The translations under genes were made by a program, and so were the position numbers. DNA of 64,000 nucleotides. It comes from a virus. The stretch covers positions 1 through 64,000 of the IMG/VR virus record IMGVR_UViG_3300017991_000049. The stretch is one strand, 5' to 3'. Each line of letters starts with the position of its first letter. Position 1 is the first letter of the stretch. This document shows positions 9,911-59,526 of this stretch, piece after piece. The notes under the pieces were generated by a model. The model saw only the letters and a list, made by a program, of their open reading frames with translations. It did not search any database and was not told the origin of the DNA.

Positions 9911-9926
9911 TTGATCATGAGATCAA
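9911..9926. promoter_or_regulatory. conserved motif TTGATC-N4-GATCAA (+ATTTTACCA), copy 1, immediately upstream of the RBS and ATG of 9155-9898
   Basis: Seen directly. Same 16-mer at 17272, 29053, 59511 and a variant at 39185. Confidence 0.5.
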
Positions 9927-9928
9927 TT

Positions 9929-10207
9929 TTACCAGCGGATTTCGGTGAACGGCCGCGAGCACGGATGCCCGGGGTCTGGGTCGTCATGCCGAATCACCTC
10001 GAAGCCGTCTTGGCGAAGCCGCATGAACACGGCGCGCTCCTCTGCCGGCGTCGGATGCTTTTTGAAGTTTGTGAACGGATTCATTATGCTGCTGCGGCCT
10101 TGCAGCGCAGCGCCTTTGATCCGTTCGTAGATAGACGCCAGGATCGGTTCGATCACCGGCCCTTGCAGGTTCTTGCGCGTGATGTCGCGCGCTTCATCAG
10201 CTTTCAT
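9929..10207 (-). CDS. hypothetical protein (92 aa)
   Basis: ORF in a co-directional gene run. No motif recognised. Confidence 0.4.
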   Translation of the reverse strand: MKADEARDITRKNLQGPVIEPILASIYERIKGAALQGRSSIMNPFTNFKKHPTPAEERAVFMRLRQDGFEVIRHDDPDPGHPCSRPFTEIRW

Positions 10208-10514
10208 CGTCGTCTCCGTGCATGGCCGACAGCAAACCGAGCAGCTCGAAGACGCGCTTGGCGTCTATGGGCTTATCGGGCGTTAGCTGTTCGGGCTGGA
10301 TTTTCTCGTCGCCGAAGTAGCTGTAGCCGTGGGCGACGTCCGGACTCAATGTCAGCTTGGTTTCGACCCACTTGTCGAAATCGTCGCCGAGTTCGTCTTC
10401 GGCTTCTGCGAGCAGCTTGCCGAGTTCATGGGCCCGCAGCAGTAACGCTCGGCCCATGCGCATCACACCCAGATGGTGCTGATGGATCTTGCCTATGGTT
10501 TCTTCAGACATCAC
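10197..10514 (-). CDS. hypothetical protein (about 106 aa)
   Basis: Start chosen at MSEETIGK to avoid overlap with the downstream gene. Acidic C-terminus. Confidence 0.35.
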   Translation of the reverse strand: MMSEETIGKIHQHHLGVMRMGRALLLRAHELGKLLAEAEDELGDDFDKWVETKLTLSPDVAHGYSYFGDEKIQPEQLTPDKPIDAKRVFELLGLLSAMHGDDDES

Positions 10515-10771
10515 TTTCCTTTCTCTGCTAGCTCTGCTAGCGTATCGCCGTGACAGGCCTGCGGGGCGCAATAACAACCAAGCACTTTGCCGCGCAGTGT
10601 TGGCAAAAGCCATAGCAAATGCGGCTGCGTTTGCAACCATGCTCGATATTTGGCAATCACCTCTGCGCGTGTACCATCTGGGCCAATACGAAAAGGATTG
10701 CCCCAGATGCTCCCACGTCCGATATAGATATCGAACGGCTCGCGTTTGCAATGTACGACACGTGTAGTCAT
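10511..10771 (-). CDS. DUF4326-family protein
   Basis: Start at MTTRVVHCK; the upstream part of the ORF overlaps tRNA-Ser. Motifs VVHCKREPFDIYIGRG-x-WGNPF and LGCYCAP-x2-CHGD are typical of DUF4326. Confidence 0.55.
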   Translation of the reverse strand: MTTRVVHCKREPFDIYIGRGSIWGNPFRIGPDGTRAEVIAKYRAWLQTQPHLLWLLPTLRGKVLGCYCAPQACHGDTLAELAEKGK

Positions 10772-10773
10772 AG

Positions 10774-10857
10774 CGGAAGCGGCAGGGCTCGAACCTGCAA
10801 CGGGTATTTCACCGCGACTGGCTTCCAACCAGTTTCCTATCCATTCGGCTCGCTTCC
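10774..10857 (-). tRNA. tRNA-Ser (GGA), type II
   Basis: Acceptor GGAAGCG/CGCUUCC. Anticodon stem CUGG/CCAG, loop UUGGAAG. Long variable arm CGCGGUGAAAUACCCGUUG. Confidence 0.75.
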
Positions 10858-56701: not shown

Positions 56702-57034
56702 CTAGACAACGCGGCGCTGGACAGCCTTAGATTTGTCGCGCCATTGGATTTTCAGACCCGTGCAACCAAGACGCTCCTTGAGCGCAGCCTGTTGCTCCTC
56801 GGGCATTGCCATGATGGCCTGTTTGATCGCGGCGTAGTTGAGCGCACCCTGCGCACGCTTGCGTATCTTCGTACGCCGCCGACGGCTACCACAGCCGCCG
56901 CAGCGCTTCGGCGGCTGCGATTTCACGGGCGCAGTCAGGCGCGGCGGGTTGGCGACGCACGGAAACTCCTTGAATGCCGGATCATCGACCATGCGATCGA
57001 TCAGCTGCTGAGATACCAAGAGTATGCGCGCCAT
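56702..57034 (-). CDS. hypothetical basic protein with CGGCG motif (110 aa)
   Basis: ORF; Arg/Lys-rich centre. Confidence 0.45.
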   Translation of the reverse strand: MARILLVSQQLIDRMVDDPAFKEFPCVANPPRLTAPVKSQPPKRCGGCGSRRRRTKIRKRAQGALNYAAIKQAIMAMPEEQQAALKERLGCTGLKIQWRDKSKAVQRRVV

Positions 57035-57041
57035 GCTGAGC

Positions 57042-57473
57042 CTACGTGGATACCGCGACGTAAGGCGCTGCAGCCTGCAGCTCCTGTCCGTCTTTGACAG
57101 TTTGCACCAGTTCGTCGACCTGCGTCTTGATCAAGTCCCAGATCGCGTTCGCAATCGTCTCGCTGTCGACCACCAGGTCGATGTAATGCAAGCGGAAGCC
57201 TGCTGGACTGGTGTCGTCCTCGGGCTCGCCGATGGGTAGTTCTTCCAGGTCGGGCCAGGAACAGACTCCAGAGAAGAAACTCTCGAGCTGGCCCTGCAAA
57301 TTGAGCGGTTTCTGGTAGTAGCGGAAGATCTCGCGGTCGATTCCGCACGGTTCGGAGGCCTCGATGCGGATACGAAAGCCCACATGCGTCCCGATGACGT
57401 AGTCAACCTGGAATTGAGGCGTGAGTGTGACCCGGATATTGGCGCCACAACTGCTTGAGCTTGAGTCTGCCAT
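57042..57473 (-). CDS. hypothetical protein (143 aa)
   Basis: ORF with a Ser-rich N-terminus. Confidence 0.5.
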   Translation of the reverse strand: MADSSSSSCGANIRVTLTPQFQVDYVIGTHVGFRIRIEASEPCGIDREIFRYYQKPLNLQGQLESFFSGVCSWPDLEELPIGEPEDDTSPAGFRLHYIDLVVDSETIANAIWDLIKTQVDELVQTVKDGQELQAAAPYVAVST

Positions 57474-57516
57474 CCTGACCTCCGTGTCAAAGCGCTATTA
57501 CAGCAGGCTTCCAGCA

Positions 57517-59520
57517 TTATACAGCAACTCGTCTGCCTTTCGAAACTCCTCCTGGCTTCCATCCGGGCATGCCTGTATGCAGTTCATTCAGCCCTCTGCG
57601 GCCCACGCTCGACGTGTTCACGTGTGACTTACGGTGGTTCCACGCCGCGGTGCGGTAACCTTGCTGCCACAGCTGCAGTCCGACCGTGTAATCGCCTCCG
57701 TTGTGCCCGATATCGGGGTCTGGGATCATAGCTTCGCGCATAGCGGCTGTTTCGAGCGCCCAGAAGCCACCTGCAGCGAAGAAAACGTGCTGCGCATTGG
57801 GCGCTTCGGTCTTCTGCTTCGTCTGGAGCTGCCGGCCACGCCACCACGGGCGCTTCTTGGCCCATGCCAATTGCGCTGGATTCATGGTCCAGAAGCGCAA
57901 ATCGCCGACCATGCGCGCCTTTTTCACGTATTCGTTGATGATTTTGGACGCCAGATGCGGATACCAGTCCGCATCGCGGTTCGCGATCGAGTCATCGTCG
58001 AACCAGACGATCCATTTCGTGTCGATCGGGTTGTTTTCATCCCAGAACAGCTGGCGCATGGCCGGATATTTCTTCCGGTTGTCGTCGTTCAGGATCAGCG
58101 TGTGCAGTTGACCCTCGTCGCGGAGGTCTTCGAGCCACTTTCGCGTCGACATGCACACCTGATTCGTTGCAATACGGATGTCGCGGCGCGCTGGAGACGT
58201 CGTTTTGAGGATACTGCCCAGGCAAGCGCGGTGCATATCCGGATAATCGCCGTACATCAGGATGCAAATGGTCATTTTGCCGCCAATTATCACGTGATCG
58301 AGCACATTATCGACCGCGCGCTTCCCTCTGCCCTTTTTCGCCTTCCGTTCGCCCTGAAAAGCGTGCAAGAGCGCCGGCACATCGGCTTTCGGCGGGATTG
58401 TGACCGTCTTGGCGGCCTTTTTGCTGATGATTTGGTCCGCTGGCGCGAACAAATCGACCGAATTGGGCACCAAGACGCGCTTCGGGGGCGCTTCTGCCTT
58501 CGGAAGCACCAATTCCTTCGGTTTTCCGATCGGCGGCAGCGTGCCATCGTCGTAATAGCTCATGACAGCCTCCAAAACGTGATCGACAGTGACCATTTTC
58601 AAGCATTCTGGGATCTTTTGGCCGTAGCCATCGTCGACAGGGCGCTTGCAGTATGATCTATGCTTGTCCTTCTGCGTATGCAGGATCTTGTTTTTCCAGC
58701 AGCCGCGGTCCTTACAGCAGTCCAACAGGCCCTGCGTGTGCAAATATCGATGCGGAACCTTCACTGATTGCGAATACGGCCCGAAATTCTCCACGCCAGC
58801 CACGTTGACGTATGCTTCCCACCACCAATGCTCTCGTCCGCCGGCCAGAACCACGCAAGGCTTATCGAAAGCGGCCGCCATGTGCATGAAACAGGTGACC
58901 GGGCACACGATTCCCTCTGCATGGTAGACCAGCCACAGCACGTCGCGAAGGTTCGTCTTACCGACGAGGTCCATGGCGCCGTCGACAGGCGGGTTGACGT
59001 TGCCCTTATGGTTAGCGCCACAACGGACCATATGCAGGTTTTGCGCGCGCATTGCGTCAGCAAGCTGCTGCCAGCGCTGCGCGGACCACGCTTTCGTCGT
59101 GAAGTCCGACTTGTTGCCCGGTACGAGCAGCCAATAGCGCCCAGACAGCGGCGGATTCTTGTAATGCCACTCATCGAGGTGCAGATCGCCCTTCGGATGC
59201 AGGCACGGCACCGGCTGTCCGCACCGTTTCTGGAAGTCTCGGTGGAACGCCGTGACGAAATGCAGCTTCTTCCTGTTCGCCTCGGAGATGTACTTGCCGT
59301 AGTTCAGATGAACCTGCTGCATATCACGCGGTACGTGGCCATGGTTGCCCGCGATATGCGGATTGTGGTTCCACAGCGTCTTACAATGTGTCGCCACGTG
59401 TATCTCGTACTTGCCGGGGTAGGCCAGCGAGATATCGCGCACGAGACCGGTCAGGCAAGTGATGTCGCCGGGCGCGCAGCCGTGGGTGATGACGATAGGT
59501 TGGGCTGATTTTGATCTCAT
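57517..59520 (-). CDS. bifunctional glycosyltransferase: N-terminal GT9 (heptosyltransferase-like) plus C-terminal GT2-like
   Basis: N-terminus IVITHGCAPGDITCLTGLVRDISLAYPGKYEIHVAT and LVGKTNLRDVLWLVYHAEGIVCPVTCFMHMAAAFDKPCVVLAGG match GT9 motifs. C-terminal ICILMYGDYP...WFDDDS (DxD). The start codon lies inside a copy of the TTGATC...GATCAA motif. Confidence 0.6.
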   Translation of the reverse strand: MRSKSAQPIVITHGCAPGDITCLTGLVRDISLAYPGKYEIHVATHCKTLWNHNPHIAGNHGHVPRDMQQVHLNYGKYISEANRKKLHFVTAFHRDFQKRCGQPVPCLHPKGDLHLDEWHYKNPPLSGRYWLLVPGNKSDFTTKAWSAQRWQQLADAMRAQNLHMVRCGANHKGNVNPPVDGAMDLVGKTNLRDVLWLVYHAEGIVCPVTCFMHMAAAFDKPCVVLAGGREHWWWEAYVNVAGVENFGPYSQSVKVPHRYLHTQGLLDCCKDRGCWKNKILHTQKDKHRSYCKRPVDDGYGQKIPECLKMVTVDHVLEAVMSYYDDGTLPPIGKPKELVLPKAEAPPKRVLVPNSVDLFAPADQIISKKAAKTVTIPPKADVPALLHAFQGERKAKKGRGKRAVDNVLDHVIIGGKMTICILMYGDYPDMHRACLGSILKTTSPARRDIRIATNQVCMSTRKWLEDLRDEGQLHTLILNDDNRKKYPAMRQLFWDENNPIDTKWIVWFDDDSIANRDADWYPHLASKIINEYVKKARMVGDLRFWTMNPAQLAWAKKRPWWRGRQLQTKQKTEAPNAQHVFFAAGGFWALETAAMREAMIPDPDIGHNGGDYTVGLQLWQQGYRTAAWNHRKSHVNTSSVGRRGLNELHTGMPGWKPGGVSKGRRVAV

Positions 59521-59526
59521 GATCAA
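59511..59526. promoter_or_regulatory. TTGATCTCATGATCAA motif, copy 5, overlapping the start codon of the GT9-GT2 gene
   Basis: Seen directly; followed by ATTTTACCA as in copy 1. Confidence 0.5.

Follow-up and report, generated by a model that had tools for sequence, protein, structure and literature searches.

A dispersed dyad-symmetric repeat, TTGATC-N4-GATCAA, mostly at cistron boundaries in a large uncultivated phage and its relatives

The 64,000-nt stretch of phage DNA analyzed here (positions 1 to 64,000 of IMG/VR record IMGVR_UViG_3300017991_000049, hereafter "the window") contains a 16-base palindrome, TTGATC-N4-GATCAA, scattered among its genes. We confirm that this palindrome is real, non-random and biologically meaningful. 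The sites form a discrete set, lie mostly between cistrons and are conserved, in position and at the nucleotide level, in a small clade of related phages. The reading that we favor, at a probability of about 0.45 and on the strength of sequence comparison, is that the sites bind a dimeric, phage-encoded, sequence-specific protein and may serve as operators or roadblock-type elements at cistron boundaries. The element is not of a new kind; it belongs to one already described, the dispersed dyad repeats of phage genomes.

Copies, consensus and placement of the palindrome

Four exact copies of TTGATCTCATGATCAA are present in the window, against 0 expected from 100 shuffles, and chance or composition was rejected as the origin of the motif on the basis of these shuffles. 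The four had been listed in a preliminary description of the stretch, at 9911, 17272, 29053 and 59511, together with a one-mismatch variant at 39185, and all five are real (Table 1). A supposed half-site at about 47105 proves to be a complete, if degenerate, site at 47117-47132, and a seventh site, at 3312-3327, had been missed. The exact matches are on the plus strand at 17272, 29053 and 59511 and on the minus strand at 9911, where the plus strand reads TTGATCATGAGATCAA. Because the genes near the sites all lie on the minus strand, minus is the sense strand for every site reading given here. The motif had been written TTGATC-TCAT-GATCAA; this is correct for the sense strand at 9911, whereas the other three exact copies read TTGATC-ATGA-GATCAA. 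The centers found in the window are ATGA (three times), TCAT and ATGT.

Allowing up to three mismatches adds three places, 39185 (one mismatch), 47117 and 3312. The pattern TTGNT[CG]-N4-GANCAA retrieves the same 7 sites against 0.1 expected, so that composition accounts for 0 to 0.1 of the 7 sites in the 64-kb window. A 24-bp position weight matrix (PWM) was built from all instances. When the 64 kb were scanned with it, the 7 sites scored 33-37 bits and the rest of the window stayed below 10 bits, the best score in shuffled sequence being 18.7. This gap identifies a discrete set without a tail of weak matches. Strong sites are separated by 3.8-12.4 kb, with a mean of about one per 9 kb.

The consensus, aATT-TTG(A/T)TC-N4-GATCAA-AAt, is dyad-symmetric, A/T-rich and about 22-24 bp long, and its information content is down to background level about 4 nt away from the core in either direction. 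The two 6-bp half-sites are 10 bp apart from center to center, which is one helical turn; two half-sites 10 bp apart on one face of the helix are the classical geometry of a homodimeric DNA-binding protein. PWM scores are about equal on both strands. The preliminary description had the motif often followed by ATTTTACCA, and this extension was rejected. Only the copy at 59511 carries it, those at 9911 and 17272 being followed by TTTTACCA and TTTTCACCA; the extra letters are the antisense of the Trp-stop codons (TGG-TAA) of the two upstream genes at 9911 and 59511.

Intergenic DNA makes up about 18% of the window, and 5 of the 7 sites are intergenic or overlie a start codon; the other two (B and D) are internal to open reading frames (ORFs). 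Sites A, C, F and G occupy the four intergenic gaps of the window that are shortest and richest in A/T. From the end of the motif to the ATG there are 1 nt (H), 12 nt (A), 14 nt (F) and 42 nt (C), and at E the ATG is within the motif; the distance from motif to ATG is 11-21 nt at A, at F and at most orthologs of C. The Shine-Dalgarno (SD) sequence lies outside the motif, and all sites are in a transcribed, sense context. A location "at gene starts", as first described, thus applies to 5 of the 7 window sites and to most orthologous sites; it does not apply to B and D, and the distance to the start codon is not fixed.

Site A occupies the 30-nt gap between the gene at 9929-10207 (stop TAA) and a MazG-like gene at 9155-9898, the sense strand reading ...TGG-TAA-aa, motif, AAAGGAGATACG-ATG; as had been reported, a ribosome-binding site (AAAGGAG) follows the motif directly. 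The context claimed for site C also holds: it lies 3 nt past tRNA-Gln(CTG) (29072-29143) and precedes the DUF7873 gene (28246-29010). Site F is in a 42-nt gap between a DUF1257-like gene (47145-47555) and a DUF2997 gene (46881-47102), and AATTAGGAGATCAT-ATG of the latter, with the SD sequence AGGAG, comes after it. Site E lies between the gene at 59530-60624 (TAA stop 59530-59532) and a GT9/GT2 glycosyltransferase (GT) gene whose ATG, at 59520-59518, is the center of the motif, so that the site does supply the start codon, as first noted. Site G together with its AAATT flank is the entire 20-nt spacer between tRNA-Thr(GGT) (3328-3401) and tRNA-Lys(CTT) (3236-3307). Beyond the window, a strong site (H) and a weaker one, TTGATCACATGATCAT, inside an NAD-ligase gene were found in flanking sequence; there are no sites in the 13.6 kb from site E to the right-hand end of the sequence obtained.

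The two internal sites are read in frame, as IDHEIK at 17272 and IDHVIK at 39185, which agrees with the preliminary description. Site B encodes K-I-D-H-E-I-K (M-V-K-I-D-H-E-I-K) in the linker between an N-terminal domain and a C-terminal Cys-rich "HTEHCC..HGCKYG" domain, and homologs of this ORF show that the linker with the motif precedes a Cys-rich domain that is widespread and stand-alone. Site D encodes I-D-H-V-I-K inside ORF 39082-39498, 99 nt upstream of the next gene start (39085). Descent of the shared IDHxIK peptide from paralogous proteins was rejected, the two ORFs being unrelated; the common peptide results from conservation of the arms at the nucleotide level within a linker.

Table 1. 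Sites of the palindrome in the window and in its left flank (coordinates of the window; sequences on the sense, minus strand)
Site	Position	Sense sequence	PWM score (bits)	Remarks
G	3312-3327	TTGATC-ATAT-GAACAA	34.9	
A	9911-9926	TTGATC-TCAT-GATCAA	33.5	Center flipped relative to B, C and E
B	17272-17287	TTGATC-ATGA-GATCAA		In frame in ORF 17004-17543
C	29053-29068	TTGATC-ATGA-GATCAA		8-bp arms TTTTGATC/GATCAAAA
D	39185-39200	TTGATC-ATGT-GATCAA	35.1	Perfect 7+2+7 palindrome
F	47117-47132	TTGTTC-ACCT-GATCAA (TTGTTCACCTGATCAA)	36.7	
E	59511-59526	TTGATC-ATGA-GATCAA	36.4	
H	515 bp left of window	TTGATC-ACAG-GAACAA	strong	ATG 1 nt later

Conservation and drift among related phages

Contigs of relatives were gathered by way of homologs of the DUF7873 protein and then by way of the GT and AAA proteins. 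For DUF7873, a single-protein query found nothing and an alignment query was needed; a metagenome scan returned mostly distant homologs without the motif. DUF7873 homologs of 61-78% identity define a small clade. The contigs of the relatives (given L numbers below; among them IMGVR_UViG_3300025133_006513 and 3300017992_000015) keep the gene order of the window, with protein identities of 30-77%, and every one of them carries the motif. Matches to the motif with at most one mismatch are present in 5 of 5 close relatives (L059-L063), and the rest of about 2.1 Mb of DUF7873-homolog loci from other phages contains three scattered ones. A scan of IMG/VR for the exact 16-mer produced 51 single matches, in keeping with chance, none of them from relatives, and no contig with more than one exact copy. 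The motif is clade-specific.

Conservation in related phages had been proposed as a check, and sites B, C, E and F are indeed found at orthologous positions in 3-6 relatives, in phages whose proteins are 55-76% identical. Site C, with six orthologs (L057, L059, L060, L061, L062 and L063), has downstream of it either the DUF7873 gene or, in relatives, a small membrane-protein gene placed before DUF7873. Site B has three orthologs (L059, L060 and L361), as does site F (L234, L235 and L224). At site E, L222 and L223 both read TTGTTC-ATGG-GATCAA with the GT start codon again in the center, and L224 reads TTATTC-ACAG-GAATAA with the ATG 1 nt later; the gene upstream of site E differs in L223. The position of site D is not conserved in relative L057. 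The same relative (IMGVR_UViG_3300010413_000009, 19251-19300) has site B split by an 18-bp in-frame insertion, giving TTGATA-22 nt-GATCAA with the half-site codons retained. Either the site was inactivated recently, or its conservation is partly at the protein level.

Around site C, the relatives L057 and L059-L063 have a gene of 50-72 aa, a putative membrane protein in most of them, between the site and the DUF7873 gene. The window phage (28978-29072) lacks this small gene and has the 42-nt leader in its place. Four phages have a tRNA upstream of site C; L061 has a protein gene there. A conserved site is thus flanked, on either side, by gene content that changes.

Sequence variation was examined in a set of 20 distinct instances, which follow the pattern TT(G/a)(A/T/c)T(C)-N4-(G/a)A(T/a)(C/t)AA. 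The TT..T(C) and GA..AA positions are invariant or at least 90% conserved, the central 4 nt are variable, an A is nearly always found 3' of the motif and (A)TT usually 5' of it. The center tends to be similar within one genome and different between genomes: L060 has TCAT and GCAT, L061 has AGCG and AGCT, and ACAG is found at site B of L059 and site C of L063, which may be related genomes. The center also flips, both within the window genome (A versus B, C and E) and at orthologous site C (ATGA in the window, TCAT in L060), with the context unchanged. Such flipping argues for a reader that is symmetric with respect to the strands.

The half-sites, in turn, drift together. In the most distant relative 3 of the 4 half-sites are TTATTC instead of TTG(A/T)TC, including both arms of site E, which means that several independent sites have changed alike. 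To judge from these sequences, a half-site change shared within a genome points to co-evolution with one trans-acting factor. Site B provides a further comparison because it lies within an ORF. Its arms are identical in four lineages, and the center (ATGA, GCAT, ACAG or ACAT) varies and with it the residues encoded (HE, RM, HR or HM). Asp and Lys are always encoded there by the rare codons GAT (29% of Asp codons) and AAA (24% of Lys codons), and flanking synonymous positions vary. By its identical arms and its codon usage, then, site B appears to be under selection at the nucleotide level.

Candidate readers of the element

On the favored reading, a homodimeric phage protein would recognize the 22- to 24-bp dyad site through two half-sites one helical turn apart. 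Its sites recur about once in 4-12 kb of a long gene and tRNA array that runs in one direction; most immediately precede a ribosome-binding site or cover a start codon, in very small gaps, and some are inside ORFs. From there the bound protein would control transcription into or through the downstream cistron, as an operator or a roadblock. Protein and sites would co-evolve between genomes. A dimeric regulator with its operator had been suggested at the outset, and the 10-bp spacing of the half-sites, the variable center, an uncompensated mismatch between the arms (see below), the flip of the center and the concerted drift of the half-sites all favor that suggestion. What the sequences show is a discrete, non-random and conserved set of symmetric sites; we infer that a protein binds them, that it is a dimer encoded by the phage, and that it affects transcription.

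Several observations weigh against this reading. In many instances the motif is 2-4 nt upstream of the SD sequence, a placement that a DNA operator does not need; abutment on the SD sequence hints at a role at the RNA level, or one related to the start of transcription, and fits such roles better. The sites coincide with neither predicted promoters nor predicted terminators, and their regulatory consequence is wholly inferred. The two arms are not equivalent in conservation: the right arm is GATCAA in 15 of the 20 instances and the left arm TTGATC in 10 of 20, and the A-rich flank on the right is also better kept. Of the 10 asymmetric TTGTTC/TTGATC instances, 8 have TTGTTC...GATCAA in the same orientation relative to transcription, and this shared orientation, with the imbalance of the arms, hints at directionality. 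The split of site B in L057, with its codons kept, means that part of the conservation of that site could be at the protein level. Finally, Pfam searches of about 65 window ORFs detected no protein of helix-turn-helix (HTH) type, and no repressor-like gene was recognized within the approximately 84 kb seen of a 226.5-kb genome.

A bolder version, which we regard as improbable, is a genome-wide "punctuation" system of a large lytic phage. In it one dimer would occupy about two dozen palindromes at cistron starts, and sites about every 10 kb, including those over a start codon and in an ORF linker, would gate transcription domain by domain. If it existed, such a system would give an uncultivated jumbo-phage lineage a symmetric counterpart of the stoperators discussed below, or a spreading regulator like KorB, and site and protein would co-evolve through TTGATC, TTGTTC and TTATTC.

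A self-contained promoter or initiation element, used by a phage RNA polymerase or a phage sigma-like factor, is a rather unlikely reading; transcription would then start near the 3' edge of the motif and the SD sequence would lie in a short leader. This explanation would suit an A/T-rich 24-bp island in a genome of 58% GC, sites that are all-or-none in quality, a 3' flank that is steadily A-rich along the direction of transcription, the position of most sites directly upstream of an SD sequence and start codon (at the 11-21 nt given above), and a specificity that drifts with the genome, as it does for phage-polymerase promoters. The same phage also encodes, about 7 kb past the right end of the window (L238, 5693-6433), a 246-aa protein with a match to Sigma70_r3 (25.9 bits, cutoff 25.3) and a C-terminal HTH. 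These domains make it a probable sigma factor of the phage, which would imply phage-specific promoters.

Several features of the sites weigh against it. Dyad symmetry and a free 4-nt center are foreign to known sigma-dependent or single-subunit polymerase promoters, there is no conservation in the flanks, and the central asymmetry flips within one genome. At site E the ATG occupies motif positions 7-9 in three phages and comes 1 nt after the motif in the fourth, so that no fixed transcription start can include the GT start codon. Site G is only 4 nt from the next tRNA, and a terminator precedes none of the sites. A sigma-70 promoter was rejected because there is no -35/-10 pair 16-18 bp apart, TTGATC being 7 bp from CAAAAT, the best -10-like hexamer. 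No predicted sigma-70-type promoter overlaps any site, and a scan of intergenic DNA (k-mers and TTGnnn-N16-18-TAnnnT) for a separate promoter motif found nothing convincing. There is no -35/-10 geometry in or beside the sites, and the "phage-specific promoter" of the preliminary description, though it keeps some probability, is not supported.

We also consider it quite unlikely that the element acts in RNA, as a stem-loop UUGAUC-N4-GAUCAA that would be either a signal for processing or stability (such as a protective hairpin left at the 5' end by tRNA excision) or the site of a translational repressor over the SD sequence or start codon. Perfect copies fold as hairpins at -5.1 to -8.3 kcal/mol, and for two of them none of 200 shuffles folds as well; the motif adjoins the SD sequence or includes the AUG, it is always in a transcribed sense context, and C, G and the orthologs of C are immediately 3' of tRNAs. 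At site E of the most distant relative both arms have changed with pairing kept (TTATTC/GAATAA). A double compensated change is present at just one site, and one pair has a single compensated change. By contrast, the fourth stem pair is formed in 10 of the 20 instances and open in the other 10. Paired cells amount to 90%, a value equaled or exceeded in 157 of 500 column shuffles, and the covariation score was reached by 120 of 500. With the fourth pair mismatched in half of the instances and no covariation above shuffles, the hairpin does not appear to be selected. The mismatched form TTGTTC...GATCAA recurs at conserved sites, in 4 of 4 lineages at F (where the window copy does not fold into a hairpin) and in two at E, which argues that selection acts on the sequence of each half-site and not on pairing. 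The loop flips between AUGA and UCAU, a difference that would matter to an RNA ligand, and the distance to the start codon is variable. Rfam searches of the window found tRNAs only, with no family matching the sites. An intrinsic terminator was rejected: no T-run follows the motif, no terminator is predicted at any site and none of the strong terminators is adjacent to one.

Non-regulatory roles of the DNA are likewise distinctly unlikely. The sites might be bound by a genome-organizing protein (ParB/KorB-like or nucleoid-type), be nicked specifically, or be junctions where gene cassettes are shuffled by homologous or illegitimate recombination, like the PeSL (promoter-early stem-loop) cassettes of T4-type phages. 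They are rather evenly spread, with P about 0.001 for the window and about 0.05 for window plus flanks; gene content shifts beside conserved sites C and E; and no predicted promoter or terminator coincides with them. The evenness, however, is only marginally significant and is a weak lead, mosaic breakpoints are expected at any intergenic position, and a length of 16-24 bp is very small for homologous recombination. Pfam revealed neither a ParB-like gene nor a nuclease gene in the window, and the tight link to cistron starts would be left without explanation. A mobile palindromic element of REP or MITE type was rejected, since flanks are unrelated beyond about 4 nt and sites are orthologous across relatives; the identical 4-nt centers within the window genome are not accounted for by that test.

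Known regulator boxes offer a superficial resemblance. The FNR box is TTGAT-N4-ATCAA and the CRP box TGTGA-N6-TCACA, both palindromes for a homodimeric HTH protein, and the CRP consensus includes GTGATC..GATCAC. A borrowed host-regulator site, of CRP/FNR type or dependent on GATC through Dam or SeqA, is very improbable in spite of the FNR-like half-site TTGAT/ATCAA and the two GATCs of the element: the core is TGA-N8-TCA in all instances, 2 bp longer than the TGA-N6-TCA of CRP and FNR boxes, the half-site drifts and differs between close relatives, as one would not expect of a conserved host factor, and no regulon pattern emerged when 185,579 species genomes were scanned for TTTTGATC-N4-GATCAAAA. 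GATC-dependent systems (Dam, SeqA, MboI-type) were rejected because one or both GATCs are lost in conserved variants such as TTATTC-ACAG-GAATAA, TTGTTC-AGCG-AAACAA, TTGTTC...GATCAA and those ending in GAACAA. The genome scan gave scattered single matches only; its few multi-match genomes (a Rhodothermales and a Cyclobacteriaceae metagenome-assembled genome, MAG) contain copies of one repeated element with identical flanks. In the 3.1-Mb Rhodothermales MAG OZ241385.1 (L251, L263, L268 and L313), TTTTGATCCAGAGATCAAAA is present at least 4 times as part of a repeated element that is probably mobile and is unrelated to the phage motif.

A literature search with the motif string found no matching papers. 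The closest parallel described is a 17-bp repeat, 5'-TGTTCGG-NNN-CCGAACA, in Cluster O mycobacteriophages (Cresawn et al. 2015, PMC4351075). One Corndog genome has 34 copies. About 40% of the repeats lie in short intergenic gaps and others close to gene 5' ends, and some are clearly within ORFs; related genomes have most positions in common, and indels occur at repeats (PMC4351075). The authors suggested a dimeric DNA-binding protein and could assign no regulatory role (PMC4351075). The window element shares the invariant arms around a variable, A/T-rich center without meaningful orientation, the dispersed copies confined to one phage cluster, the preference for gaps with further copies at 5' ends and in ORFs, and the positions held in common by relatives. 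The differences are also clear. The Cluster O repeat is 7-3-7, G/C-rich and much denser, in a genome (Corndog) reportedly of about 70 kb, whereas the element described here is 6-4-6, A/T-rich and present about once per 9 kb; its half-site drifts between relatives and it often abuts the SD sequence. Cluster O phages are temperate-like Mycobacterium siphoviruses, and the window belongs to an uncultivated phage of about 226 kb with 39 tRNAs.

Stoperators of Cluster A phages, bound by the L5 gp71-type repressor, are present in many copies in short intergenic regions of long operons, where elongation is blocked, and their sequence co-evolves with repressor specificity between phages (PMC6550527, PMC9283540). 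They are asymmetric 13-bp sites, bound by a monomer and oriented to transcription (PMC6550527, PMC9283540). Copies of one short site across a genome are common to both systems, and the mode of action may be analogous to that proposed here, but the window element differs in its dyad symmetry, its nearly equal scores on both strands and its flipping center. In Cluster K phages, start-associated sequences (SAS) are a repeated motif directly upstream of the start codons of a subset of genes; the SAS includes the SD sequence at a near-fixed position and in one orientation, and the extended form (ESAS) is an imperfect inverted repeat with 17-bp arms and a 4- to 13-bp spacer just 5' of the SD-containing element (Pope et al. 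2011, PMC3203893). SAS and ESAS are conserved upstream of the same gene families across relatives and have no assigned function (PMC3203893). A conserved, repeated motif associated with start codons is what the two have in common. The window motif lacks the SD sequence, ranges from 42 nt upstream of the ATG to overlapping it and has two sites deep in ORFs, whereas the SAS is said to lie 3-8 bp upstream of start codons.

Three further systems bear some likeness. The conserved inverted repeats of phiC31, reportedly described by Ingham and colleagues in 1994, are said to be about 17 bp long, intergenic throughout the genome and operators for the c repressor. They resemble the window sites as intergenic inverted repeats spread through a phage genome and differ in sequence and in belonging to a small temperate Streptomyces phage with a known repressor. 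PeSL cassettes, attributed to Arbiol, Comeau and Krisch in 2010, reportedly combine a sigma-70 early promoter with a real stem-loop. They too are short conserved intergenic motifs beside variable genes, at mosaic junctions, but neither a sigma-70 promoter nor a real stem-loop is found at the window sites. The OB sites of KorB are a further analogy.

Large uncultivated phages have almost no mapped regulatory signals. The element described here offers a handle on its binding protein, since half-site changes could be matched to changes in DNA-binding proteins across relatives. It could also delimit expression units in a 226-kb genome with long one-directional arrays of genes and tRNAs, and mark relatives of this phage group in metagenomes. 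To the class of dispersed palindromic phage repeats it adds an example outside the actinobacteriophages.

The phage and other features of the window

The window, whose GC content is 58-60%, was placed by exact-protein look-ups on a 226.5-kb metagenomic contig of 58% GC (ENA ERZ27256796 k141_2629452, 226,517 bp), near-identical copies of which are present in JGI and Logan assemblies; it occupies about 14,183-78,182 of that contig, in reverse orientation. No close relative was found among deposited phage genomes, which identifies the source as an uncultivated large phage, and the species-genome scan found no relatives of it. The minus strand carries almost every ORF with coding signal and all 39 tRNA genes of the window. 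These tRNA genes (3162-34479) cover nearly all amino acids and lie singly or in small groups between protein genes over 31 kb, without forming one single cluster. Recognizable genes encode a gpA-type large terminase, a major-vault-protein-like protein, a Ro60/TROVE protein, an AAA ATPase with DUF1257 and DUF2997 neighbors, an SPFH protein, a Clp_N protein, the DUF7873 protein, and several sugar-, sulfo- and methyl-transferases.

The vault-like protein (845 aa, 19617-22154) has major vault protein shoulder and repeat domains (MVP_shoulder, 7e-23) and is kept at 65-68% identity in every close relative. The Ro60/TROVE gene, with a vWA domain, is at 54288-56030 on the minus strand and is followed by a 1.27-kb stretch without a called ORF (region 53018-56030). 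Within this stretch there are a strong terminator (53273-53241) and a good sigma-70-like promoter (TTGAAA-17-CATTAT, 54253-54225). No Y RNA was detected in it by Rfam; the stretch could encode an undescribed Y-RNA-like partner of the phage Ro60 protein. Four other stretches of 650-890 bp (16307-17003, 39499-40294, 42756-43406 and 51258-52144) are without an ORF according to a crude codon-score gene caller, and may contain small genes or non-coding RNAs.

The Cys-rich module at the C-terminus of the ORF with site B (17004-17290 of 17004-17543) has the signature (D/C)VHTEHCC(V/I)xHGCKYGxxxCxV...QSxPCEEC and no Pfam family. In metagenomic sequences (44 hits) it is found as stand-alone proteins of ~100 aa and with varied N-terminal extensions. 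The ORF with site D begins with a long Thr-rich, low-complexity stretch (MMMTTGTTTKTTTSTT..., 39390-39498), and its start position is putative. An over-represented k-mer, GGCGTAACCGGAGG (31840-32420), was rejected as a regulatory motif; it is a coding tandem repeat, Pro-rich and of PPVTPPV type, inside a trypsin-like peptidase gene (31476-33347), and has no relation to the palindrome. Two small adjacent ORFs, 45929-46255 and 46227-46541, both contain TGTCTCTCAATCTGATCA on the plus strand, at 45958 and 46256, that is, at the 5' (start-codon) end of the first and about 240 nt into the second; they may be tandem paralogs.

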